Shown piece by piece: positions 2,162 through 63,919 of a stretch of DNA of 64,000 bases. The notes beneath the pieces were generated by a model. The model made no database searches. It was not told the DNA's origin and saw nothing but the letters and a program-made list of their open reading frames with translations. The position numbers and the translations under genes are program-made. Position 1 is the stretch's first letter. Every line of letters begins with the position of its first letter. Origin of the DNA: an uncultured virus (IMG/VR IMGVR_UViG_3300044641_005543). Lineage: Duplodnaviria > Heunggongvirae > Uroviricota > Caudoviricetes. Where the stretch lies: the IMG/VR virus record IMGVR_UViG_3300044641_005543. One strand, given 5' to 3'.

Positions 2162-2541
2162 TTTTTAATATTCCTTCTTTTTTTATTTCCAGATGTTCCT
2201 GGCCATTTTATTTTTGGTTGTTTTTTTACCCTAGACATTCCAGAAGGTAAAGGTTTTTTATATTGATCATCTTTATAGGCATTGTGTTTACTGTATAAGG
2301 CTTGTTTTTCATCATCGCTCATTCTTTCTGAGTTTCTCAATGCTAGGTCACCAATTGTTTTTAGTTCTGTATCAGATTTTTTTACAGAAGTATTTAATGT
2401 GATAGCATCTTTGGTTATGTTTCGCTCTGTTGAACCAGATTGACATACTACACATGATGGATTTGAAATATAATCTTTAATATAGAAAAATAGCTCAAAT
2501 TCAGAATGGCATTTATTACAAAAATAAGAATATGTTGGCAT
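2158..2541 (-). CDS. FmdB-family zinc-ribbon protein
   Basis: MPTYSYFCNKC...FE...CVVCQS N-terminus. Confidence 0.75.
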   Translation of the reverse strand: MPTYSYFCNKCHSEFELFFYIKDYISNPSCVVCQSGSTERNITKDAITLNTSVKKSDTELKTIGDLALRNSERMSDDEKQALYSKHNAYKDDQYKKPLPSGMSRVKKQPKIKWPGTSGNKKRRNIKK

Positions 2542-3128
2542 TAATAGTTAGATAATTGAGGCAAGTAGTTGACCCATTCTTCTGGCATATCGTCTTTTAT
2601 TTTATTCAAAAGCTCACACACAGGCAAGTATTTCAAATGTTTATTGGGTTTTATTGGGATATTGCACAATGGCATATTGGCCTCTTTGGGTGTTCTATTT
2701 CTTTTTTTTCTATTACATTCTATACAGGCTGTTACTATATTTGTCCAACATGTTGCTGATCTATTATCATCATTCCATTTAGATTTCGGTATTACATGAT
2801 CATATGTTAAAGTATTTATATCATATTTTTTATTACAATACTGACATGTATAATTATCTCTTATATAAATATTTTTTCTAGAAAATGTCACCAGTTGGTG
2901 ATTGATCTTAAAAAATCTTTGAGTCTTGGCTATTGCCGGTATAGGGTATTTTTTATCGACCCCATTAATATAATCATTTTTGTAAAAGTCTAATATTTCT
3001 ATGCCATACTTTGGATTATGTTCAAATCTCATAGACCATATCATAGCTCTTTGCCATGATATAATATTTAGAGGACTATAATCAGCATTTAATAATAAAC
3101 ATTCTTTATGCTTGTGTTCCATTTTCAA
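2541..3128 (-). CDS. HNH endonuclease (McrA-like)
   Basis: RDNYTCQYC, TYDHVIP, NIVTACIECN. Confidence 0.85.
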   Translation of the reverse strand: MKMEHKHKECLLLNADYSPLNIISWQRAMIWSMRFEHNPKYGIEILDFYKNDYINGVDKKYPIPAIAKTQRFFKINHQLVTFSRKNIYIRDNYTCQYCNKKYDINTLTYDHVIPKSKWNDDNRSATCWTNIVTACIECNRKKRNRTPKEANMPLCNIPIKPNKHLKYLPVCELLNKIKDDMPEEWVNYLPQLSNY

Positions 3129-49967: not shown

Positions 49968-50278
49968 TAACTTTCATCTTCTCTACTATTCCAATCATCA
50001 TCTTCATCTGGAACCCATGTTTGATCAGTATCATAATCTTCTTCAATATCTTCTGATTCGTCCAGCATTATGGTGAAACTATTAAGTATTTCTAACATCA
50101 AATCAACTTTATAACCAATATCTCTAACTTCTTTTTTAATTTCACTAATATCTTTAAGTAATTTATCTTGATCTTTTTTTAGTACACATATGTCTTTTGC
50201 ATTTTCTACATCTTTTTTATATAGATCCTTATGAGATTGATCAATTTTCTTACGGATATCATCAAAATCTCGTGACAT
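49967..50278 (-). CDS. coiled-coil hypothetical protein
   Basis: 103 aa, AGGAG SD. Confidence 0.55.
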   Translation of the reverse strand: MSRDFDDIRKKIDQSHKDLYKKDVENAKDICVLKKDQDKLLKDISEIKKEVRDIGYKVDLMLEILNSFTIMLDESEDIEEDYDTDQTWVPDEDDDWNSREDES

Positions 50279-50288
50279 AATAGGCTCC

Positions 50289-50600
50289 TTATTTTAGTTT
50301 TTTATACTCTTTTATGTCGCCATTCTGGATAATTTTAATATCTTCATATGGAGCAGCAATTCTTCTATAGAATTCTTGTTTCACATTTTCTAATACACCA
50401 GTAATCATAGCGATCTTATTATATGATGGTTGTTCCATTAAGCCCGATAATATACGAGAAAAACAATAATTTATTCGACCTAAATAAATACTAAAGTCGT
50501 GCGGATTATTCAATGAATGTTTAATATCACGAATACAAAGGGTTAATTGGTCAATACAATGATCTAACTCTAGCCTATCATCTTCACTTATATATGGCAT
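50289..50600 (-). CDS. conserved phage hypothetical protein
   Basis: MPYI...G.INY...GVLENVKQEFYRR..APYED.KI..NGD. Confidence 0.65.
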   Translation of the reverse strand: MPYISEDDRLELDHCIDQLTLCIRDIKHSLNNPHDFSIYLGRINYCFSRILSGLMEQPSYNKIAMITGVLENVKQEFYRRIAAPYEDIKIIQNGDIKEYKKLK

Positions 50601-50609
50601 AATATTCTC

Positions 50610-51137
50610 CTAGCATTTACAATTATATTTTGAACAATATCCGCATCTAGGCCCAGGATCAACATTCCCCCAAGCATTAGCATTACCATCAAAACTTTCT
50701 TTGCCAGTGTCAATACAAACTAATTTTTTAGAGCGGCCTCTTTTTACTAGGCCCACATTATACCAATGACAATCCCAAAATTTTAAACCAGTTTTTTCAA
50801 GAATATCATCAACTAAATTCTGAATTTCTTTCATACTAATAGTAGTATTGGCTTTACAAGTTTTAGCATATTCTGTTATAAATCCCCAATCACTACTTTC
50901 ATAAAATATGACGCCCTCTTCTTCTGCAAAATTTAATTTGCAAACTTTACTAAATATTTTTGGGGCAAGGTCGAATTTGGCTAATTTTTTTTGAATAGAA
51001 TATGCTTCACTGGCTTTCTTTTTGTTTCTAAACTCTTTAAATACCGAACCTTTGTGATTTTTAATAGGATATACTTGGCAGCATCCTCCCTCATCAAACC
51101 AATCACTATAATCAATTTCAAATTCAGTATTTATCAT
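50610..51137 (-). CDS. minimal protein-kinase-like protein
   Basis: EGGCCQVY glycine loop, VFK lysine, DCHWYN catalytic loop, IDTG. Confidence 0.6.
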   Translation of the reverse strand: MINTEFEIDYSDWFDEGGCCQVYPIKNHKGSVFKEFRNKKKASEAYSIQKKLAKFDLAPKIFSKVCKLNFAEEEGVIFYESSDWGFITEYAKTCKANTTISMKEIQNLVDDILEKTGLKFWDCHWYNVGLVKRGRSKKLVCIDTGKESFDGNANAWGNVDPGPRCGYCSKYNCKC

Positions 51138-51138
51138 T

Positions 51139-51465
51139 TTACTCTGTCGTTTCTATAATAGAATTACCCATAATAGATTCAGCAATTAATATTGCTTCTT
51201 TAAGACTAAATGTTTCGCTAATCTTCAGAGTATTTCGTGGAATATCTATCCAATAGGAGCCATATACTCCATAAAAAGAATCGCCTTTGTCTGGATTATG
51301 AAAAAGAAAATCTTCGTAAGTATTAAATGAATCGGTATAATATTCGCCGTTTTCATCCTGTTTCTCGTATACCGTATCCACAATTAAAAATCTAAAATTA
51401 GGATGTTTAGGATTCTTAGGACTATGAACTATGCCACGATAAAATTTATTTGGCAGAGCGACCAT
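51139..51465 (-). CDS. hypothetical protein
   Basis: ATG preceded by GGAGAGG. Confidence 0.5.
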   Translation of the reverse strand: MVALPNKFYRGIVHSPKNPKHPNFRFLIVDTVYEKQDENGEYYTDSFNTYEDFLFHNPDKGDSFYGVYGSYWIDIPRNTLKISETFSLKEAILIAESIMGNSIIETTE

Positions 51466-51742
51466 ATTGGTATCCTCTCCAATCATCTTTTAGAAATTCT
51501 TCTCTATTAGAATATAGAGGAACAACAGTATCTTGGTTTAAATATGGATTATGATTAATGCTCAATCCATACAGATCATGTTTGTCATTAATCCTGCCAT
51601 ACGCAACAATTTTAAAAGAGCCTAATTTTTGTCTTAGTTTTTCTAGTTCGTCTTTAGCATTTTGAACTGTGAATAGTTTTGGTACAAGACCTTGTTCAGT
51701 ACAATTCAAAACATAGTCTAATGGATCAGAATATTCGTTCAT
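51446..51742 (-). CDS. hypothetical protein
   Basis: 98-aa operonic ORF. Confidence 0.5.
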   Translation of the reverse strand: MNEYSDPLDYVLNCTEQGLVPKLFTVQNAKDELEKLRQKLGSFKIVAYGRINDKHDLYGLSINHNPYLNQDTVVPLYSNREEFLKDDWRGYQYGRSAK

Positions 51743-51957
51743 GAAACAAATCCGATTTTGGTTTTCTCAACTACTGTAACTTCTAGTTCGTTTGGTGCAA
51801 AATGTTCAGTGGAATAACTACGACCATTCCACCAACCACACTTATACGAGATACTATTGTCAGCACTAATAGTAGCACTAACTATAGTTCCATAAACATC
51901 ATCAGTCAACTTAACTTTACTGCCGATCTTATATAGTTCCAGAGAATTTTTACTCAT
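51739..51957 (-). CDS. small SH3/KOW-like hypothetical protein
   Basis: YKIGSKVKL...G.I...Y.C.WW...EL. Confidence 0.5.
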   Translation of the reverse strand: MSKNSLELYKIGSKVKLTDDVYGTIVSATISADNSISYKCGWWNGRSYSTEHFAPNELEVTVVEKTKIGFVS

Positions 51958-51992
51958 GATTGTATCCTTATAGAATTAAGTTAATCAATAAA

Positions 51993-52065
51993 TAGGAGTG
52001 GTGGGAGTCGAACCCACACTTGAGGCATTTTAAGTGCCTTGACTCTGCCTTTGGTCTACACTCCC
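51993..52065 (-). tRNA. tRNA-Leu(UAA), short variable loop, CCA not encoded
   Basis: GGGAGTG/CACTCCT acceptor, A73; AGGCA-CTTAAAA-TGCCT; T arm GTGGG-TTCGACT-CCCAC. Confidence 0.9.
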
Positions 52066-52072
52066 ATAAAAA

Positions 52073-52150
52073 CAACCGACTACAAAAACCATTGACTTGA
52101 GGTTGATTATCTTGTTGTGCCTCTGTCATTTAAATTCTTGTAGCCGATTG
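52073..52150 (-). ncRNA. 78-nt structured RNA hairpin in a 3' UTR
   Basis: 16-bp basal stem with three G-U pairs (minus strand only), inner TGAC/GTCA and GAGG/CCTC stems, followed by a U-tract. Confidence 0.7.
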
Positions 52151-52172
52151 CCTATTGGTTTTAAAAACCCTC

Positions 52173-52454
52173 TCAGCCGTTAGCGTGAGCCTTTAGGCGA
52201 CGAACAAAGTCGGCCATAGCCTCAACATTATCCACTGTCTTAGATGGCTTCGCACGTTCCATAGTTGGTAGTTCTTCACCCTTCTTAGCAAGAGCCGCTT
52301 TAGTACGAGCAAAACGAGCCATTGTGGTAGCAACCTTCTGACCCGTCTTGCTGGCAATTTCAGCATAAGTCTTAGACGAAAAAACAGCCTCAAGAAACTG
52401 CTCATCAGAGCAACGAACACGCTTCTGCTTCTCAACAATATTTACATCAGCCAT
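52173..52454 (-). CDS. 93-aa basic HTH-like protein
   Basis: SKTYAEIASKTG..VATTMARF; GGAGG SD; visibly higher-GC codon usage (GCT/CGT/AAG). Confidence 0.7.
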   Translation of the reverse strand: MADVNIVEKQKRVRCSDEQFLEAVFSSKTYAEIASKTGQKVATTMARFARTKAALAKKGEELPTMERAKPSKTVDNVEAMADFVRRLKAHANG

Positions 52455-52531
52455 AATCAACCTCCAATTCAATCCAAAATCCACAAAACAGTACCGATCA
52501 CGCGATCAGTTCAACCCTGCTTTGTATTACC

Positions 52532-52559
52532 ATTGTATCCTGTAGTATCGTCTTGTCAA
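52532..52559 (-). promoter_or_regulatory. sigma70-type promoter
   Basis: TTGACA-16nt-TACAAT, CGAT in the spacer. Confidence 0.7.
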
Positions 52560-52582
52560 GACCGCAACTTGAATTTTTAAGT

Positions 52583-52786
52583 TCAAACAGTCTGAATTTC
52601 ATGTTCTTCTAAATCATCTATAATCTTTTTCAGATTTTTATTTTCATTTTCTAATATTGATATGATTTCTCTAGCCTTTTCCAGAGCCTTATGAAGATGA
52701 TACACCTTATTGCTTAATTCATCAGCAACATAATTTTTCATTATCATATCTATCTCCTTTTGAGTTAGCGATATAATAATATACAC
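52583..52786 (-). CDS. coiled-coil hypothetical protein
   Basis: short ORF; internal AAGGAG SD suggests a later start. Confidence 0.45.
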   Translation of the reverse strand: MYIIISLTQKEIDMIMKNYVADELSNKVYHLHKALEKAREIISILENENKNLKKIIDDLEEHEIQTV

Positions 52787-53067
52787 TATATATTGTTAAG
52801 AAATACTTTTAATTCATCTATTTGATTTTTGTGCAATATGATTTGATCGGTATATGGTTTTCCGTTCTTTAGTATTTGATAAATGTATCGTATTTTTTGC
52901 CAAAGAGACATTTTAGAAGAAATCAAAGAACTAAATACTGATAGTTCTATCATCTTAAATGTTGCATCATAGTCTATAACTAAAACTTCACTATGACAGT
53001 CACATCGTATGAAAAGAGTTCGATAGTTATTTATTTTTTGGTCTTTTTTTACCAAAGATTCGTTCAT
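52786..53067 (-). CDS. hypothetical protein
   Basis: FIRCDCHSEVL motif. Confidence 0.5.
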   Translation of the reverse strand: MNESLVKKDQKINNYRTLFIRCDCHSEVLVIDYDATFKMIELSVFSSLISSKMSLWQKIRYIYQILKNGKPYTDQIILHKNQIDELKVFLNNI

Positions 53068-53137
53068 AGTTTTTTTCCCATGTTTTTTGATCTACGCTTT
53101 TTGGTCTTTGTTTAGAACCCTTACCATTTTGGCTCAT
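53027..53137 (-). CDS. 36-aa basic phage peptide (not in ORF track)
   Basis: translated by hand: MSQNGKGSKQRPKSVDQKTWEKNYERIFGKKRPKNK; GAGG SD. Confidence 0.55.
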   Translation of the reverse strand: MSQNGKGSKQRPKSVDQKTWEKNYERIFGKKRPKNK

Positions 53138-53139
53138 AA

Positions 53140-53844
53140 TTAGTCCTCAAGAACAAAACTCCAATAACGACTATCTTCTTTCTTTTGCAAATTATCCCAA
53201 TACAAGCAGCGGGCAATATATGATGGAATTTTTTGCTTGCCGCAATTTACCACCCAGTGACGTTCAGCCTTTTTATAAATGGTTGAGCCACTCTTACTCT
53301 TATTATATTTCAAATCTTCCATATCGTAAAGGCGAAGCATATGAACATCCAAACACAATGCTCTGGCCTCATTAGGATGGATCATTTCTAAGGCAAAACT
53401 AACCTTAGCCAAACCAATGCCACTAATTTTATTTACAATAGAATCACGCTTCTTAACATGACCCTTCTTGGAGGTAAAATAAAAGTCTTTAGGATTAGCC
53501 CAAAACTTACTAGCAAAGTCCCAAATATATTTTGTACGATTATTGTGTAGGCCAACACCACTCTTATGCAATTTATCTCTCAGAATATTTTCATTATCAA
53601 TCCACTCATTAAAATTCTTAATAGCATTATATCCCTTAACATTACCTTGCCAAGTGGTATGAACGCTGGTATATGCAAAGAGATAACGACGAAAAATATC
53701 TTCAACATTCTGAGGACGAACACTCTCCCAATATTCTCTATATGCTACAACCTTATCTTTGGGGAATGTAGAGAAGAAAATATCGGCCTTACTCTTGCTC
53801 ATTTCAACAGTATTATTTTCGGCAACAGTGTTCAAAACAATCAT
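53140..53844 (-). CDS. HhH-GPD DNA glycosylase/AP lyase (OGG-like)
   Basis: HhH ISGIGLAKVSFAL, catalytic LDVHMLR, Y..AE. Confidence 0.75.
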   Translation of the reverse strand: MIVLNTVAENNTVEMSKSKADIFFSTFPKDKVVAYREYWESVRPQNVEDIFRRYLFAYTSVHTTWQGNVKGYNAIKNFNEWIDNENILRDKLHKSGVGLHNNRTKYIWDFASKFWANPKDFYFTSKKGHVKKRDSIVNKISGIGLAKVSFALEMIHPNEARALCLDVHMLRLYDMEDLKYNKSKSGSTIYKKAERHWVVNCGKQKIPSYIARCLYWDNLQKKEDSRYWSFVLED

Positions 53845-53874
53845 AAAAACTCCAATGTTAGCGATGATGCTACG

Positions 53875-53903
53875 ATTCTACACTACGAGTATCGTCTAGT
53901 CAA
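53875..53903 (-). promoter_or_regulatory. sigma70-type promoter
   Basis: TTGACT-17nt-TAGAAT, CGAT in the spacer. Confidence 0.65.
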
Positions 53904-53914
53904 TACGGTAGACT

Positions 53915-54619
53915 TTAGTCAAATCTATATGGTTGAGACTTGTCCCATATCTGTTGATATCCAACCATATTTTCTGTTTTCCATTGAGTAGAATTATTAA
54001 TTTCATTAATATAGTGATTAGATAATTTATATAAATGTATTTTACTTCTATCGCTATTATATCTATTTGATATTTTTCTAATTTTATACATATCAGAAAT
54101 TATATCTAAAATAGCCTCTGTATATTCAATTAAATCTTCATATCGAATAAAAATATAATTATCTACTAAATATGGCATATACAGGTATAAAAATTGTAAT
54201 TTATTAGATCTCATATCAAAAATATCTTGATATTTCTCTTTTGTATACCAATGAGAATCACAAAATTTGTGATAATCAGATAAACCTCTGGCAGATTGCC
54301 AAGGTTTAATATCTAAAATATTGGATGTATCTAAATGATATGGAGTTTTTTTCATACCTCCTATCCAATTGTAAATATTTCTAACAATGCCTATAAATAA
54401 AGTATTGTGTGCTGTATTTAAATTACTCCATTGAGAACAACCAAAAAAATGCTTATGACCATAATCCCAAGTGATTGGAATATGAAATACATCTTTGATT
54501 AATTTTTCTACCCAATTAGTACCAGAATGTCTTTCCCCATAAATAGTAAAATTTTGGATGGAATAATTATCTATTGTAGAATAGAATTGGTTATATTTAA
54601 ATAGTTCTATTGCAACCAT
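53915..54619 (-). CDS. sulfotransferase-like protein
   Basis: GERHSGTNW, GHKH, IVRNIYNW, IRYEDL. Confidence 0.7.
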   Translation of the reverse strand: MVAIELFKYNQFYSTIDNYSIQNFTIYGERHSGTNWVEKLIKDVFHIPITWDYGHKHFFGCSQWSNLNTAHNTLFIGIVRNIYNWIGGMKKTPYHLDTSNILDIKPWQSARGLSDYHKFCDSHWYTKEKYQDIFDMRSNKLQFLYLYMPYLVDNYIFIRYEDLIEYTEAILDIISDMYKIRKISNRYNSDRSKIHLYKLSNHYINEINNSTQWKTENMVGYQQIWDKSQPYRFD

Positions 54620-55910
54620 GAAGTATTTTAAATGTTGGAAATCTTAGACTAATACCACCATCTTGGTTTTTGGTTTCCTCAAAATACTGGACTGTGATAA
54701 TCTTTCCAAGAATCTTTTTAGGATGCTGATAAAATTCTTGTCTTTGGTCAATAGCGAAACCGCTACCAACCCTAACAATATGTTCCTTATGCTTAATCAT
54801 CACACAAGATAGCATAGTTTCTTCATGCTCTCGACCATTCAAGACATATCTAAATGGCCCCATTTCAACATCAACAACCTCATACTCGTCATCAAAAAAC
54901 TTCTTAACTTTCAGAAGGTCTTTGCTACGCTTGCCCTTATATGGCTCGTCTGCTCGCAGCATTATTCCTTCCCAACCATAATCAGCGGCTTCTTTAACCC
55001 ACTCTTGAAAATGTTCGTCATTATGAATCAGTTCTTGTTCCAGCAGAGTAAGGCATGGACATTCGTTCTTGCTCATAGTCTCTGTCAGATTCGCCAAGCG
55101 AATAGAATACGGACGATTCTTCTCGCCCTTCTTGCTATAAAATTCATCGTGCGTAATCATATCAAAAATCTTAAAAGATGGATTAGGAATAGTATGATCC
55201 TTCTTCTTTAGTTGTTTCATCACTCCCTGAAAGTCCTCATTACCATCATCATCAACAAGACAAAGTTCTCCATCAAATACTACATTAGTAATGTTAAGAG
55301 CCTTAATACCATCCCTAACGATGCCAAGAGTATCAAACTCTTTTCCCGTGCGGGAATAGAAGGTAGTATCACCATTACTATCAACAATCCCAATACATCT
55401 AGCACCATCAATTTTTCTGCTAACATACCAGCCATCCTTCCAATCTACCAGTTTAGGCTCGTACTTATCTGCCAGAGCAACACTAAACTCTGGAATATGG
55501 TCAGGAATAGCCTTGTTGATAATCTTGTCACCAGCACGGGTTTTCAAATCCTTGTCGATAATACAATGAATCAGTTCCTCGTATTCAGAGTAGTGTTCGA
55601 TAAAACTATTCACAGCAGAGATAGCATCATGTCCAGTAATCTTTCGACTCTTTAGAGCATCCAACAAATCAAAGAAATTTTTATATTCGTTCTTTCTGGC
55701 TACAAGATGATTCTTCTTCTTCAAATTATCGCTGGTCACATTATATTGCCACAACGGATGATAAGTATAAAGTAAAATATTTTTAGTGAAAGATGCTGCG
55801 GCACTGTTATGTCCGCAATAATCCAAAATAATTCCTTCCTTATCTTTAGTGCTGCTCGTAGCACGAAGATCACGAACCATTCCCATAACATAATTAAAAT
55901 CGTGAATCAT
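54597..55910 (-). CDS. ATP-dependent DNA ligase
   Basis: KIDGAR, FDGEL, FDMI, WEGIMLR, LLKVK, LRFPTF. Confidence 0.93.
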   Translation of the reverse strand: MIHDFNYVMGMVRDLRATSSTKDKEGIILDYCGHNSAAASFTKNILLYTYHPLWQYNVTSDNLKKKNHLVARKNEYKNFFDLLDALKSRKITGHDAISAVNSFIEHYSEYEELIHCIIDKDLKTRAGDKIINKAIPDHIPEFSVALADKYEPKLVDWKDGWYVSRKIDGARCIGIVDSNGDTTFYSRTGKEFDTLGIVRDGIKALNITNVVFDGELCLVDDDGNEDFQGVMKQLKKKDHTIPNPSFKIFDMITHDEFYSKKGEKNRPYSIRLANLTETMSKNECPCLTLLEQELIHNDEHFQEWVKEAADYGWEGIMLRADEPYKGKRSKDLLKVKKFFDDEYEVVDVEMGPFRYVLNGREHEETMLSCVMIKHKEHIVRVGSGFAIDQRQEFYQHPKKILGKIITVQYFEETKNQDGGISLRFPTFKILHGCNRTI

Positions 55911-55935
55911 CCAAAGTTTCTCCTGTATTTAGCGT

Positions 55936-55964
55936 AGTATACCATACGCTATCTGTATTGTCAA
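55936..55964 (-). promoter_or_regulatory. sigma70-type promoter for the ligase
   Basis: TTGACA-17nt-TATACT. Confidence 0.7.
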
Positions 55965-56338
55965 GTATCGTCAATACGGGTCTTGCTTCTTAAATTATTT
56001 ATTTTAGCAGCAAGTAAATAGTTCATGGCTTTCGTGATACTCTCAAGAGTATCTCCTAATTGTCCTAGTCCCCAATTGCAGTTTTCACAAATCCATCCTC
56101 TGAAACTATTATCATCATGATCATGATCTAAACACCATTTATTCTTAAAAGGAATTCTTCCACAGCATTGACAAACATCTGGTTTTGGTGGTGCTTCTTT
56201 ATGAAGTTGATTTCTCAATCTAGAATGTTTTTTGAGACATTGTTTGCATCGTGTATCTAATCCATCAACACGATTTTTATGTTTAGAAAAAGATTTTTTA
56301 TTTTTTCTTTTTCCACAATAAATGCAAACTTTTCTCAT
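55961..56338 (-). CDS. endonuclease VII-type homing endonuclease
   Basis: CQCCG...LDHDH...FRGWICENCN..LG..GD. Confidence 0.8.
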   Translation of the reverse strand: MRKVCIYCGKRKNKKSFSKHKNRVDGLDTRCKQCLKKHSRLRNQLHKEAPPKPDVCQCCGRIPFKNKWCLDHDHDDNSFRGWICENCNWGLGQLGDTLESITKAMNYLLAAKINNLRSKTRIDDT

Positions 56339-56455
56339 TTATGTTTCTTGAGTTGTTTCTTTAATTTTTTTAGATATCTATCTTCTGCTAATTCTTCAGG
56401 ATTTTTCTTTTCCTGCTTACGCAGTTTTTTATATATCTTTTTCCAGAAACTCATA

Positions 56456-56998
56456 TTATACCTTTATTGATTGACTAACGTTTTTACAAAAATCTATAAC
56501 TTGTTCATCAGAAAATCTGTTTCTGGCATAGTTAAACATAAGAGCAACAAAACGAATATTCCCTTTAATATAACCTTTACTATTATCTATTCTATCAACA
56601 GATGCAGAATATGGTGCTGAAATATTATCGTCACTATATTTTTTTAATACCAGTTTTTGTTTTGTGAATGGACAAATACCGCCTTGTTGTTTCCAAAGCA
56701 TTTCCAAGTATTCTATATCTACATCATAGAACTGGTTTCTCTTTTTGGAACTTTTTTTGATTACTTTCATATACCATCTAAAACCAGCATATTTATCTCT
56801 TTGTCTTGTATATTGTGTATTTAAAAAATTATTTTTAAATTTTGTTAGATGTTGTAAATTATTTTTATTTTTCCCAGCACATTTAAGACTACAATAAAAT
56901 TCAGTTTTACCCCTTTTTTTCTGTCTTTTTATTTCTGCTGCTGGTTTTTCTGTTTCCTTAGCACATACAGCACATATTATCTTAGTTTTAGTAATCAT
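56456..56998 (-). CDS. HNH-like homing endonuclease
   Basis: CAVC...FYCSLKC, Q.G.CPFT, SVDRIDNSKGYIKGN; start moved to the ATG with AAGGAG SD (the track start lies inside tmRNA). Confidence 0.7.
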   Translation of the reverse strand: MITKTKIICAVCAKETEKPAAEIKRQKKRGKTEFYCSLKCAGKNKNNLQHLTKFKNNFLNTQYTRQRDKYAGFRWYMKVIKKSSKKRNQFYDVDIEYLEMLWKQQGGICPFTKQKLVLKKYSDDNISAPYSASVDRIDNSKGYIKGNIRFVALMFNYARNRFSDEQVIDFCKNVSQSIKV

Positions 56999-57058
56999 TT
57001 GTATCTCCTTAGTTGGTAATTTATAATACACCAAAAATGGAGATGAGCAAGTATTTAA

Positions 57059-57413
57059 TGGAGGCGGGCAGAGTCGAACTGCCGTGCTATCATATTTCAA
57101 ATTACATTTTCTACAAGTTTATTTTATTCATAGATTAAATAGGAGTACAGAATAAACAAGACTAATCCTATCTTACCAACTGCTCTTAACCTACAACCCG
57201 TTGGATATTGTAAGTGCAGAGGGATTTAACGACAGACTTTTGATACCTACCCTCAATCGGTATCGCAGTCTGTTACTGCCGTTTTTTATTAGGCAGCAAG
57301 GGCTAACTGATTTGTGCCAGTTAAAGCATTTGGTAGATTTTTAAAGTGGCCCTTCCACCAACCACTACTTGCCAATATAATAATCTTTATGTAGTCGAAA
57401 CCTTTACGCCCCC
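57059..57413 (-). ncRNA. ssrA: tmRNA (tag (A)GTNQLALAA)
   Basis: 5' GGGGGCGTAAAGGTTTCGAC; 3' GGCAGTTCGACTCTGCC-CGCCTCC-A; G3-U70; TTAACT then GGC ACA AAT CAG TTA GCC CTT GCT GCC TAA TAA. Confidence 0.95.
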
Positions 57414-57638
57414 TTATTTCTTAAGTACACTTTTTGTATTATCTTCCCAATTTTCTAGTCTCTCAATCTCATTTTTAATCTGCTGAAATTCCATTTGACT
57501 AGTTCCACAACGCCAGAAAACAGAATCAAATTCTAGTTTCTGTAATCTACTATAGAAATGTATATTAAATAGAAAAGACAGTAGTAGTAACCCAATTAAG
57601 AACGTATAACTTGCTAAATGATTTGAACGATTAGTCAT
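57414..57638 (-). CDS. small membrane protein
   Basis: TM segment FLIGLLLLSFLF; stop abuts the tmRNA 5' end. Confidence 0.5.
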   Translation of the reverse strand: MTNRSNHLASYTFLIGLLLLSFLFNIHFYSRLQKLEFDSVFWRCGTSQMEFQQIKNEIERLENWEDNTKSVLKK

Positions 57639-57705
57639 AAATTTTGTTCCTTTTAGACGAAATGGTGTATGATACTTTATCAAGTTTTAATCAAGGAGTT
57701 CGACT

Positions 57706-58215
57706 ATGAATCATTGTGCTAATTGCTTTAAAAAAACTAGTAATGCTAAATTTTGTTGTTTGTCTTGTAGTGCTACTTATACTAATAAAACTCATCCAAA
57801 ACGAAAACCTCAATCAAATAATAATGCTAAATGTCCTAATTGTAAAAAGAATTTTCATACTGATTATGCTACACAAATTTGTTGTTCCAAACAATGCTCA
57901 ACCGAATATCGCAGACTCCAGAGTGATAAAATTATTGAACAAGAAGGTTTTGGCGATGGGCATTATCATAATCTTAGAATTAGAAAATATCTTATTAGAA
58001 AACATGGAAATAATTGCATGATTTGCGGGCAATCTGGAGATAATTGGAATGGAAAACCCATTACTCTTATAGTAGATCATATTGATGGCAAATCCAATAA
58101 TAATAAACTTAATAATCTCCGTATAGTTTGTCCAAATTGCGATTGTCAACTTCCAACATACAAAGCAAAAAATAAAGGTAATAGTTCTAGGAAATATTTT
58201 ATAGTTCAAAAATAA
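57706..58215 (+). CDS. HNH homing endonuclease
   Basis: FCCLSC and CCSKQC repeats; CMICG...LIVDHIDG...NN.L.NLRIVCPNC; AAGGAG SD. Confidence 0.85.
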   Translation: MNHCANCFKKTSNAKFCCLSCSATYTNKTHPKRKPQSNNNAKCPNCKKNFHTDYATQICCSKQCSTEYRRLQSDKIIEQEGFGDGHYHNLRIRKYLIRKHGNNCMICGQSGDNWNGKPITLIVDHIDGKSNNNKLNNLRIVCPNCDCQLPTYKAKNKGNSSRKYFIVQK

Positions 58216-58216
58216 A

Positions 58217-58292
58217 TAGGGGATAAAGGAGTTGAACCTTTCTCTTGAACTGCTTATAAGACAGGTGACCACTACCGGCGGTCGCATCCCCC
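58217..58292 (-). tRNA. tRNA-Ile(UAU), CCA not encoded
   Basis: GGGGGAT/ATCCCCT acceptor, A73; GACC/GGTC D stem; loop CT-TAT-AA; T arm AAAGG-TTCAACT-CCTTT. Confidence 0.8.
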
Positions 58293-58300
58293 GTGTTTGT

Positions 58301-58329
58301 ATTGTATACTATCGACCGATCCCTGTCAA
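58301..58329 (-). promoter_or_regulatory. sigma70-type promoter for tRNA-Ile
   Basis: TTGACA-17nt-TACAAT ending 8 nt before the tRNA 5' end. Confidence 0.7.
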
Positions 58330-58871
58330 CTCTTGAGATATTTTTCGTAGTAGTTGCGATAAATACTCATAATAATACCACTAGTTGTTCCAACATTTAA
58401 AGACCGTACACTTCCATAAGTAGGAATAGTTAGAACACAACTACAAGCCATAAGAATTGTTTCTGATAAACCAGCATTTTCTTCTCCAAAAATAAAAATT
58501 GGTTCATCAATATTAGAAAAATCAAAACTAAAAGGATCGAATGTGATTTCTTTGTATTCTGGAATATTATTCTCAATAGCAATTAATGGTCGGCCAGTAG
58601 ATTTAATTACTTTAATAAACTCTTCTTCGGTTTTATAATGAAACATTGGAGTGTAGTGATGGGTTCCTACGCTACCTCTTTTATCCCATTTCTTTTTACC
58701 AACATAATGTACGCTACTAAATCCAAAAAAATTAGCATTACGAACCATTGTGCTGAGATTAAAATCTCCACCAATATTAATCATAGCAACACTTGCTGGA
58801 ATACTATTTTTATGACAATAGTTTCCGATTTCTGGCACACTCAACTCTTTAAGACTGTCTATCACGTTCAT
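58326..58871 (-). CDS. SpoU/TrmH-family (SPOUT) RNA 2'-O-methyltransferase
   Basis: FNLSTMVRNANFFG, FIFGEENAGL, VRSLNVG. Confidence 0.88.
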   Translation of the reverse strand: MNVIDSLKELSVPEIGNYCHKNSIPASVAMINIGGDFNLSTMVRNANFFGFSSVHYVGKKKWDKRGSVGTHHYTPMFHYKTEEEFIKVIKSTGRPLIAIENNIPEYKEITFDPFSFDFSNIDEPIFIFGEENAGLSETILMACSCVLTIPTYGSVRSLNVGTTSGIIMSIYRNYYEKYLKS

Positions 58872-58975
58872 TTTCAAGTTCTTTAAGTTTTTGTTCCCAA
58901 ATTTCTCTTTGTTTATACATTTCTATACAATTATTACAAAAATCCGAACTGATATATTCTCTAATATCTGCTAGT

Positions 58976-59368
58976 TTATTTTTTATCTCCCATATTTTTG
59001 TTTCTAGTTCGTGATTTAGCATTTGGCTTCTTCTCTTTCTTAGTTTCTTTTTGCCAGAAAACCATTTCGTTGACTTTATCATCCCAAGCACATTCAATCA
59101 AGTCTTGTGCTGCAAGTTTTGCTAGGGCAATATTGTGAATCCAAATCGCTGTTTCTTCAAAAATTTGTTCATTAGTATCTTCATCCAAAAGAGGACGATC
59201 TTCGTCATCATGACCAAGACAAAATTCCTCCACCAAATTGGTCATTTGCTTCAATGAAATATACTCATCTAAATTATCTCTATTATCTGACGATATACTT
59301 TTCGCTGCTGCTTCACGCATCTGTGCAGCATATCCATCTAAATCAACAATAGCATAAACTTCAGACAT
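58976..59368 (-). CDS. hypothetical protein
   Basis: 130 aa, GGAG SD; probable paralog of 45144..45545. Confidence 0.6.
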   Translation of the reverse strand: MSEVYAIVDLDGYAAQMREAAAKSISSDNRDNLDEYISLKQMTNLVEEFCLGHDDEDRPLLDEDTNEQIFEETAIWIHNIALAKLAAQDLIECAWDDKVNEMVFWQKETKKEKKPNAKSRTRNKNMGDKK

Positions 59369-59380
59369 TTTATCTCCAAT

Positions 59381-59653
59381 TTATTTGATATATTTCTTTA
59401 CACCAGAACCAATTTCCATATCATTAATATGGTCTATTGTATCTTGCATACTATACTGTCCTCTTGGAAGCCATTTAGTATCATTATAAAGAGCGGTCAA
59501 AATTTGTGGAATCCAATGTTGATGAGCCACTCCGTATTCGGTCGAAAAATATTCTTTAATTATGGTATCCATATCAGTAACCATATTTTGAATATCCTCA
59601 CGATATTGTACTAATTTTTCTAGTTGTTTTTTTTGTTCAGTATTAGTGGTCAT
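59381..59653 (-). CDS. hypothetical protein
   Basis: 90-aa operonic ORF. Confidence 0.55.
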   Translation of the reverse strand: MTTNTEQKKQLEKLVQYREDIQNMVTDMDTIIKEYFSTEYGVAHQHWIPQILTALYNDTKWLPRGQYSMQDTIDHINDMEIGSGVKKYIK

Positions 59654-60063
59654 ACTAGTACAGATTTAAGTTTCAACTTCAAAATCTTATGTGGAGTTTT
59701 CCAAACCCCTGTTTCTTTGTTCTGAATATCTCCATTCATCCAGATATGACAAAATCCAGCATTTTTATCAAGTCCCCATGCAAGAATACCATTTTCATCA
59801 ACTCTTTCTACAAGAAACTTTCCACGATAGCCCATAGGAATAAAATCGCCATGATGAACAAAGTATGGGCCACCAGCAACCTTGATTTTGTCTCCCTTTT
59901 GGAGTTCTCTCCAGTTAATATTACGAATAATTTTTGTATTCCTATCCTCTCTGCTCTTATTCTTGAACATAAAAGGAGTATTACAATTCTTGCACATATA
60001 AGCACGGGGGCCAGTTACCGTTCCGCACTTATCGCAAGCCTTTTTGCCTCTACCAAGTCCCAT
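59650..60063 (-). CDS. zinc-ribbon hypothetical protein
   Basis: GKKACDKCG...GPRAYMCKNC; own promoter and AGGAG SD. Confidence 0.65.
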   Translation of the reverse strand: MGLGRGKKACDKCGTVTGPRAYMCKNCNTPFMFKNKSREDRNTKIIRNINWRELQKGDKIKVAGGPYFVHHGDFIPMGYRGKFLVERVDENGILAWGLDKNAGFCHIWMNGDIQNKETGVWKTPHKILKLKLKSVLV

Positions 60064-63040: not shown

Positions 63041-63231
63041 GCCGCTTCTTGAGGAATTTCTTCAACAGATAGAATTTTTACTAAAGAATATTCTATAGAA
63101 GGAAAATGTAATTTAAAATTAGAAAGAGCATTTTCAGAAGTAGAACCATCAAATACCTGATTAATTAATAGATTTTGTTTTGACAAATCGCTGTTTTTAA
63201 ATACCTGTGCCGTGATATTAAATGTTTTCAT
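63037..63231 (-). CDS. hypothetical protein
   Basis: 64-aa ORF from the ATG at 63231. Confidence 0.45.
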   Translation of the reverse strand: MKTFNITAQVFKNSDLSKQNLLINQVFDGSTSENALSNFKLHFPSIEYSLVKILSVEEIPQEAA

Positions 63232-63280
63232 TTTGAGTAAATTCTTGAATTTTGGTGTATTTGATATTAAAAGGAAATAT

Positions 63281-63919
63281 ATGAAAACTAAAAAATGTAC
63301 CGTTTGCCTCAAAAATAAAAAGTTAACTTCTTTTTACAAGAAAAAGGGCGGAAAATTTGGATTGGACGCAAAATGTAAGTCTTGCGTTTCTCTTTATCAT
63401 AAACAGCATTTTCAAAAAAACAAGACCTCAATCTTACAAAGTAGATCAAAATATATGAATGGGTATAGAAAAAATAATAAAAACTATACTTCAAAATATA
63501 ATAAAAATTACTATGAAAAAAATAAAAAAGAAATTCTTAGACATAAAGCCAGTTTAGAATATAGAAAATTACAGAGAGAATATGAAAGAAATAAATATCA
63601 AAATAATTTATCATATAGAATATTAAGTAGTTTAAGAAGCAGATTAAGATTGGCAGTTAAGAATAATATAAAACAAGAAAAAACTAAAGAACTAATTGGC
63701 TGTGATATTGAATATTTAAAAACATATTTAGCAAATAAGTTTCAAGAAGGCATGACTTGGGAAAATTATGGAAAATATGGTTGGCATATAGACCATATAA
63801 TTCCATGTTCCAGTTTTGACATGAGCGATCCTGAACAACAGAGAAAGTGTTTTCACTATACAAATTTACAGCCATTATGGGCTAAAGATAATATTAGTAA
63901 ATCAGATAAAATCTTATAA
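63281..63919 (+). CDS. HNH homing endonuclease
   Basis: KKCTVC...CKSC, LIGCD...GMTWENYG...WHIDHIIP...FHYTNLQPLW..N. Confidence 0.85.
   Translation: MKTKKCTVCLKNKKLTSFYKKKGGKFGLDAKCKSCVSLYHKQHFQKNKTSILQSRSKYMNGYRKNNKNYTSKYNKNYYEKNKKEILRHKASLEYRKLQREYERNKYQNNLSYRILSSLRSRLRLAVKNNIKQEKTKELIGCDIEYLKTYLANKFQEGMTWENYGKYGWHIDHIIPCSSFDMSDPEQQRKCFHYTNLQPLWAKDNISKSDKIL

Follow-up and report, generated by a model that had tools for sequence, protein, structure and literature searches.

Pairing between the 5' and 3' untranslated regions (UTRs) of prokaryotic mRNAs is known to be functional in very few cases, among them icaR, hbs and the type I toxins. In toxin mRNAs of the hok/Sok type, a 3'-terminal element folds back onto the 5' part of the message and keeps it translationally inert. 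Here we describe a locus in a 64,000-nt stretch of DNA from an uncultured virus of the Caudoviricetes (IMG/VR record IMGVR_UViG_3300044641_005543), hereafter the window, where a minus-strand gene for a 93-amino-acid (93-aa) helix-turn-helix (HTH)-like protein is followed by a 3' hairpin with an apical region complementary to the ribosome-binding site (RBS) of that same gene. The closest known system is, by analogy, the icaR 3'UTR interaction of Staphylococcus aureus, in which a motif of the 3' UTR is described as pairing with its own mRNA's Shine-Dalgarno (SD) region (Ruiz de los Mozos et al. 2013, PMC3868564). Our preferred and still tentative explanation, to which we assign a probability of about 0.45, is that the phage hairpin is a self-directed, icaR-like anti-RBS that would lower translation of its own gene, in cis or in trans, once the 3' end of the transcript exists.

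The resemblance to icaR extends to a 3' UTR that carries an anti-SD motif for its own transcript (12 of 12 nt here), to a gene for a small DNA-binding regulator and to the expected block of initiation. Unlike icaR, the locus is a phage early gene, its anti-RBS lies at the top of a long terminal hairpin, in the apical loop, where it is masked by an internal GAGG and reaches the spacer and start codon, and its 3' UTR is short (approximately 105 nt) and abuts a tRNA. As in hok/Sok, a 3' element is complementary to the 5' part of the same mRNA. By contrast to hok/Sok, the RBS would be targeted directly rather than through an element at the 5' end, no activating 3' trimming is implied, and no antisense partner was seen: plus-strand promoter-like matches in 52400-52460 were weak, and the count for the region equalled that of shuffles (49 vs 46). 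An analogy to the hok and aapA toxins, drawn in an earlier sequence-only reading of this DNA, was not borne out by the gene product, which has a pI of 9.7 and four modeled helices and is predicted to be soluble and HTH-like, not a small, hydrophobic membrane toxin.

Two further bacterial systems are related in part. A 14-bp pairing of the 5' and 3' UTRs is described for the Bacillus subtilis hbs mRNA, a message with a strong SD for a small DNA-binding protein that is abundant (Braun et al. 2017, PMC5737220). The likeness is a long-range UTR-UTR pairing of about 14 bp; however, the hbs pairing is presented as protective, modulating cleavage by RNase Y upstream of the SD, whereas here the SD and start codon would be covered. 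The OppZ and CarZ RNAs of Vibrio cholerae are described as autoregulatory small RNAs (sRNAs) derived from 3' UTRs (Hoyos et al. 2020, PMC7398697). With these, the phage hairpin shares an RNA from the transcript's 3' end that is complementary to the transcript itself, for negative feedback. The phage seed would, however, be a hairpin loop, and its 3' boundary would be set by a terminator or by RNase P at the tRNA, whereas OppZ and CarZ are reportedly released by RNase E, are Hfq-dependent and have single-stranded seeds. In T4-like phages, RBS-sequestering hairpins such as that of mobE are said to be local structures at the RBS; an RBS of a phage gene would likewise be occluded by RNA pairing here, but by a partner 342 nt downstream, past the stop codon. 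Our literature searches turned up no phage case of self-pairing between a 3' UTR and an RBS, which does not prove its absence from print.

The 3' hairpin and its match to the RBS

Read on the minus strand, ATAATCAACCTC (52110-52099) and GAGGTTGATTAT (52464-52453), which lie 342 nt apart, are reverse complements of each other without a mismatch over 12 nt; reading of the strand and a repeat finder agreed on this match and its coordinates, as the sequence-only reading had claimed. GAGGTTGATTAT takes in SD and spacer of the 93-aa gene together with the AU of its AUG (GGAGG, 52465-52461; spacer TTGATT; ATG, 52454-52452). No further copy of the exact 12-mer was found in the window. Scored against the window's 803 candidate start regions, the loop 12-mer had its strongest target in its own RBS, at -15.9 kcal/mol, compared to -10.1 kcal/mol for the next unrelated region and a mean of -3.3 ± 1.8 kcal/mol. 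The exact 12-mer matched once in each of two complete relatives (223 and 244 kb), and matches with at most one mismatch were no commoner than those to a control pattern.

The hairpin comprises a 21-bp outer stem, a UUUAAAU internal loop, the helices UGAC/GUCA and GAGG/CCUC, and a 17-nt apical loop. The outer stem is rich in A-U and G.U pairs, and the terminal UUUUU lies partly within it. An earlier length of 78 nt gave way to 84 nt upon indexing of the fold, and an earlier count of three minus-strand wobble pairs to seven G.U/U.G pairs in the outer stem; the presence of both hairpin and wobbles stood. Also upheld was the proposal that CCUC has two possible, mutually exclusive partners, with 8 loop nt left free; the fold pairs GAGG with CCUC and places eight bases of the 12-mer in the loop. 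The computed probability of being unpaired was at most 0.01 for CCUC and at least 0.97 for the 13 loop bases 5' of it.

The 12-bp duplex between loop and RBS was predicted at -15.2 kcal/mol, with costs of +3.95 kcal/mol for opening the RBS and +5.63 kcal/mol for opening the loop and CCUC; by these calculations the pairing is energetically feasible but modest. An extended duplex, with 5 bp more upstream of the SD across a small interior loop, reached -21.8 kcal/mol. The duplex may measure 12 bp or, if a bulge and a mismatch are allowed, as much as about 19 bp. Beyond the SD on its upstream side, the pairing (AAUGAUUU, AAAUCAUU) was good in the L026-type clade and partial in the window; its covariation was inconsistent across clades, and it was not counted. 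RNAfold cannot show the contact of loop and RBS, which is a pseudoknot, and its minimum free energy (MFE) structure of the full transcript pairs the RBS locally, at low confidence.

Conservation and change of the pairing in relatives

Related loci (L001-L233) were gathered in seven scans. A single-protein scan with query P0003 returned four false positives (L082-L085, ligase genes), which were dropped, and one with P0010, for distant relatives, gave a single true locus, L081. The 217 loci with the gene (L001-L220 and the window) were reduced to 103 unique combinations of leader (66 nt), coding sequence (CDS) and 3' region (115 nt), on which the locus counts below are based; 13 metagenome loci (query L217), eight of which were inspected by script, stand outside these counts. 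Eighty-one of the unique loci carried a hairpin of type A, defined by an AACCUC apical motif, and 19 one of type B, which shares the CUACA/UGUAG outer stem but differs in its interior and lacks CCUC; one was of type C and two were other. The related contigs of 223-244 kb are rated complete.

The structure of the type-A hairpin was strongly conserved. Over 71 distinct type-A sequences, RNAalifold returned 16 outer-stem pairs, 13 of them with compensatory changes, and a 27-pair structure was paired in 91.4% of cells, compared to 27-53% when slid. Seventeen of the 27 pairs changed on both sides, in 185 cells vs 49 ± 7 in shuffles, and none of 500 shuffles reached so high a value. A covariance model of the hairpin was strand-specific (93.7 bits on the minus strand vs 21.5 bits on the plus strand) and found one copy in each of two complete relatives of 223 kb, but no copy in a genome of type B. 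On this comparative evidence, the hairpin is a real, strand-specific and covarying RNA structure, single-copy per genome and tied to the 93-aa gene. An Rfam 15 scan of 50000-60000 at E <= 1 returned a tmRNA (transfer-messenger RNA), a tRNA and a weak tRNA-Sec-like match, and nothing at 52070-52153. The UUUAAAU motif of the internal loop (window 52133-52127) was conserved in most type-A sequences. An internal promoter within the hairpin (TTTAAA-N17-GATAAT, 52134-52106, 9 of 12 matches) was considered and rejected: the region holds such matches no more often than chance would give, the -10-like part is not retained in the L026, L059 and L062 clades, and a promoter would leave the invariant UCAACCUC unexplained.

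The complementarity to the RBS was likewise maintained. The 12 proposed pairs held in 93.8% of the 960 cells formed by 80 distinct type-A rows, vs 24-50% when slid by 1-3 columns; in an earlier set of 76 loci, the unbroken run of Watson-Crick pairs counted from GAGG was at least 8 long in 72 and at least 11 long in 41. As aligned, the apical region of the hairpin is complementary to its own SD, spacer and start in most relatives, with an almost invariant 8-nt core (GAGGUUGA/UCAACCUC). Positions -13 to +3 were conserved at 90-100% in the type-A loci (spacer, 91-100%) and the leader further upstream at 33-81%. Duplex energies between leader and hairpin averaged -22.8 kcal/mol for type A vs -16.3 kcal/mol in shuffles (z -2.4), and -17.1 vs -16.0 kcal/mol for type B (z -0.4). 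This conserved complementarity, together with the own RBS as the best target, fits a self-directed anti-RBS.

When the CDS tree was rooted on L081, type A appeared ancestral and widespread, with types B and C nested within it. Fitch parsimony placed 9 of the 10 changes in the 8-nt RBS core on branches reconstructed as non-A, which make up 18% of tree length (binomial p 1.9e-6), and the core was much more variable in the type-B clade than in type A. Whether loop and RBS co-vary in relatives, a test proposed in the sequence-only reading, received a divided answer: complementarity was kept in most, yet a single lineage was compensatory, loop positions 9-12 drifted uncompensated and a derived clade had lost the anti-RBS. 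The compensatory lineage is the L067 group (four loci), in which a G-to-U change in the RBS is matched by a C-to-A change in the loop, such that GGAGGTTTATTATG pairs with ATAATAAACCTC and 12 of 12 pairs are kept. Its sister L128, of type C, has the same RBS change with another hairpin, the loop of which (ACAACCUCCAAGU) pairs with AUUUGGAGGUU in a shifted register. L036 and L076 carry C-to-U opposite G. Relatives outside the subfamily carry an ordinary terminator (L081, 47% identical), a simple hairpin (L212) or, ahead of the tRNA, no hairpin at all (L231, L232), and these four loci all have other RBS spacers.

Type-B hairpins (L186-L205, L214, L216, L228, L058, L090, L133 and L137) occupy the same position, the 3' UTR of the homologous gene. 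In their interior, AGAG/UCU-type pairs stand in place of GAGG/CCUC and the loop reads ACA(A)CAUAGACAAA; L191, L214 and L228 retain UAGUCAACC, complementary to GGUUGAUUA. They are stable (-28 to -39 kcal/mol), and judging by its sequence the type-B hairpin looks like a decayed or repurposed switch. Because type B keeps the hairpin without the anti-RBS, the hairpin would have a role independent of the pairing. A 9-nt match between type-B hairpin and leader (GAUUGGUUA) was rejected as support, since the same leader occurs with type-A hairpins (L052, L210).

The cassette and its surroundings

The region is one conserved early-gene cassette in a clade of uncultured T4-like phages with genomes of about 200-240 kb. 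Its elements follow each other on the minus strand as promoter, structured 5' UTR, RBS, 93-aa open reading frame (ORF), long 3' hairpin, U-run and tRNA (Table 1), and all of those named in the sequence-only reading were present.

Table 1. Coordinates of the cassette features in the window
Feature	Position	Strand	Remarks
sigma-70-type promoter TTGACA-N16-TACAAT	52532-52559	-	11/12 matches; A-rich tract precedes
5' UTR, about 70 nt	52455-52525	-	start at about 52525, inferred from -10 position
5'-UTR hairpin ACTGATC-GCGT-GATCGGT	52493-52510	-	nested in longer stem 52525-52483
RBS element GGAGGTTGATTAT (SD GGAGG, 6-nt spacer, AU of AUG)	52453-52465	-	5' partner of proposed pairing
93-aa ORF	52173-52454	-	basic, pI 9.7; HTH-like
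84-nt 3' hairpin	52070-52153	-	-34.2 kcal/mol, z -5.4, 0/200 shuffles equal
internal GAGG masking anti-SD CCUC	52120-52123	-	pairs with CCTC 52102-52099; paired in 96% of cells as helix 3
anti-RBS ATAATCAACCTC (8 loop bases + CCUC)	52099-52110	-	3' partner of proposed pairing
U-run UUUUUAU	52067-52073	-	at hairpin base, immediately 5' of tRNA; relatives show similar short U-runs
tRNA-Leu(UAA)	51992-52066	-	ARAGORN and Rfam; begins 3 nt past hairpin base

The promoter was kept in relatives, with TTGACAA and TAgAAT conserved across 50 aligned upstream regions including that of the distant L081. The 5' UTR was conserved as a unit; both tiers of its stem appeared in the MFE and centroid folds, and all six pairs of its hairpin had compensatory changes (RNAalifold, 39 sequences), by which covariation this hairpin, too, is a real RNA structure. 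A full GGAGG SD is rare in the window (3 of 78 ORFs, with crude starts), and by motif match the cassette RBS is unusually strong and the promoter near-consensus. The gene lies in an island of approximately 45% G+C (42-46% over 52100-52500) compared to 25-33% in the surroundings. An ORF at 51968-52129, overlapping hairpin and tRNA, was rejected as coding.

The 93-aa protein was modeled as four helices with a predicted local distance difference test (pLDDT) score of 82 (AlphaFold2 with alignment). Its best Pfam match, Sigma70_r4_2 (E 0.0033), was below the cut-off, all PHROGs matches were below threshold, an Atlas lookup gave weak HTH leads only, and a PDB fold search found nothing at E <= 0.001, the weak matches being solely HTH DNA-binding domains. 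At E <= 0.001 there were 647 protein relatives (clusters), all unnamed or hypothetical, and at 50% identity there were 27 clusters; among 50,697 deposited phage records no homologue was found. As modeled, the gene product would be soluble, basic and HTH-like.

In 98 of the 103 unique loci the hairpin is adjoined by a tRNA, 54 with a same-strand tRNA directly after the hairpin (ARAGORN) and 44 with the 5' half of a tRNA followed by a group I intron motif. Five loci were scored without a tRNA; among them L214 seems, on inspection by eye, to bear an intron, and in L004, L167 and L217 the hairpin is present with no tRNA beside it. In L004 and L167 the hairpin is followed by an unrelated stretch of about 500 nt, and in L004 a tRNA-Leu lies 535 nt further downstream, which suggests an insertion between hairpin and tRNA. 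The intron interrupts the tRNA after ...GGACTT in many relatives (e.g., L041:1912-2100, L046:1911-2107, L006:1916-2104 and L128:810-1003), and Rfam Intron_gpI was matched at 56-73 bits in 10 of 14 loci submitted. The tRNA-Leu(UAA) of the window is intron-free; in relatives, introns of this one kind stand behind several different acceptor stems. Because the tRNA abuts the hairpin so regularly, release of the hairpin by RNase P is plausible on grounds of gene order, and after a cut at the tRNA the mRNA, or a hairpin fragment, would end in a tail of 3 nt.

The gene content of the window is T4-like (rIIA, rIIB, UvsX, PhoH, DNA ligase, ribonucleotide reductase, clamp loader and many HNH/EndoVII genes). 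A tmRNA with tag peptide GTNQLALAA lies at 57059-57413 on the minus strand (ARAGORN; Rfam, 112.9 bits). A tRNA-Ile(TAT) was called by ARAGORN at 58217-58292 on the minus strand, where Rfam gives a sub-threshold tRNA-Sec-like match (25.6 bits), and a second near-consensus promoter (TTGACA-N17-TACAAT, 58301-58329) stands immediately upstream of it. HNH/endonuclease VII-like ORFs are unusually dense near the tRNA and tmRNA genes (55961-56338, 56456-57100, 57706-58215 (+), 63212-63919 (+) and 2541-3128), two of them on the opposite strand.

Readings of the complementarity

For the self-directed anti-RBS, the following course may be envisaged. Once the 3' end has been made, the exposed loop bases AUAAUCAA would nucleate on the spacer and start, after which the RBS would displace the internal GAGG from CCUC to form 12 bp, in some clades with 5-8 bp more upstream of the SD across a bulged G. 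The duplex would occlude the RBS and lower translation, giving self-limiting output from a very strong early promoter. Pairing could take place in cis, within the full-length mRNA, or in trans, by a hairpin fragment with its 3' end set by termination or by the RNase P cut. A second, pairing-independent role of the hairpin would be 3'-end formation, protection or termination. A functional link between loop and RBS is plausible and is supported indirectly.

A more elaborate form of this reading is a self-timed strand-displacement switch, in which ribosomes would load during the transcription of about 340 nt and the toehold in the loop of the finished hairpin would then invade the RBS and shut the message. 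Joined to it is the proposal that RNase P releases or defines the hairpin, such that maturation of the phage tRNA would be coupled to silencing of a potent host-takeover DNA-binding protein, and that the derived clade dismantled the switch and kept the hairpin. Taken jointly, we regard these proposals as rather unlikely.

Several observations weigh against the self-directed anti-RBS, and chief among them is that direct covariation of RBS and loop is, in the alignments, thin although complementarity is conserved. Five of the 12 pairs never vary, and a change on both sides was seen in 1 of 960 cells (that of the L067 group), a level reached by 12 of 500 shuffles. Loop positions 9-12 drift without change in the RBS (unpaired in 20, 12, 12 and 13 of 80 rows, respectively), disruptive A-to-U changes at position 9 (19) outnumber wobble-compatible A-to-G changes (8), and L052 (U.U and A.A mismatches) and L036 weaken the pairing uncompensated. 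Eight of the 19 type-B loci still carry GGAGGTTGATTATG though their hairpin is without the anti-RBS loop; therefore, conservation of the RBS does not strictly need the loop. The CDS tree was built from 282 nt, recombination is likely, and two of its inferred reversals to type A are doubtful. With opening costs of +9.6 kcal/mol in total, the net energy of pairing is about -5.6 kcal/mol before any penalty for loop closure, which is modest. Finally, the window holds 5 perfect inverted repeats of at least 12 nt within 500 nt, vs 5.2 ± 2.3 in 100 dinucleotide shuffles. The 12-mer match in a single sequence is thus not significant by itself, and its significance comes from its position and its conservation in relatives.

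Much of this evidence would also suit a hairpin that serves solely as terminator, 3'-end protector or spacer for tRNA-precursor processing, with an incidental complementarity. The RBS would then be kept for strong translation and the loop for contact with a protein or nuclease, and the need of the inner stem for CCUC would help a chance match. A long stem with a U-run behind it, 3 nt ahead of the tRNA, the constancy of that tRNA, the persistence of the hairpin in type B (with a standard RBS in part of the loci), the single compensatory event beside drifting loop positions, the ordinary frequency of such inverted repeats and the small net energy are all in keeping with it. This explanation, the main rival, is possible but in our view less likely than a self-directed anti-RBS; it leaves unexplained why UCAACCUC is 95-100% conserved in a 17-nt loop while neighbouring loop bases vary, why the spacer between SD and AUG is near-invariant only in lineages with that loop, and why L067 and L128 both keep the pairing after the same RBS change, by different routes. 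Moreover, the hairpin stays with the gene in L004, L167 and L217, where no tRNA adjoins, and a terminator scan did not list it, its loop being larger than the limit of the scan; a classical terminator stands in its place in the distant L081. The same conservation data may be read as a pairing that is functional but protective, joining the mRNA ends or masking the GGAG of the SD from an endonuclease and thereby stabilising a heavily used mRNA. The hbs interaction offers a precedent, modulating RNase Y cleavage by 14 bp between the UTRs (PMC5737220), and a T4 review describes RegB as cutting GGAG in early SDs and RNA secondary structure as protecting them (PMC3014915); the window has T4-like genes (rIIA, rIIB, UvsX, ligase). 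We nonetheless consider protection improbable, given that the pairing covers SD and start codon and would block initiation while it lasts, that the hbs interaction lies upstream of the SD, and that no RegB homologue was seen in the window, where no search for one was made.

Still less credence is given to two other explanations. Identical, inverted 12-bp copies at both ends of a gene for an HTH-like protein could be DNA operators, bound by that protein for autoregulation and possibly looped, and the double change of the L067 group is equally expected if one protein needs both sites matched. Neither copy, however, overlaps the promoter, and the 3' copy lies in the apical loop of an RNA hairpin with the covariation and strand asymmetry given above, in a stem the seven wobble pairs of which are mismatches on the other strand. 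In sequences where the similarity reaches past the SD on its upstream side, one G is consistently missing from the 3' copy (GAGG vs GGAGG), which fits an RNA bulge and is awkward for a DNA site, and 8 and 16 substitutions at positions 9 and 12, respectively, are G.U-compatible but discordant as DNA; flanking operators are thus very improbable. Alternatively, the processed hairpin could be a trans-acting sRNA directed chiefly against GAGG-type RBSs in other mRNAs of phage or host, with its own gene as one target of several. A hairpin that ends in a U-tail is like the 3' terminus of an sRNA, cutting by RNase P at the tRNA would fix such a terminus, and sRNAs from 3' UTRs that regulate their own operon are known, as described for OppZ and CarZ (PMC7398697). 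That the next best start region in the window is 5.8 kcal/mol weaker than the own RBS, and that the complete relatives of 223 and 244 kb hold the exact 12-mer once each with near matches no commoner than control, speaks against other targets in these phage sequences, and a mainly external target is in our view very improbable.

If the link between loop and RBS were not functional, the locus would be a caution that conserved complementarity without covariation can come from two independently constrained elements. The candidate self-directed anti-RBS is spread over hundreds of environmental phage sequences, among which the clades with the anti-RBS lost or re-registered are natural controls. If it is functional, it would provide a compact, portable part for self-limiting expression, and large lytic phages would use self-contained RNA switches to cap their strongest early promoters.

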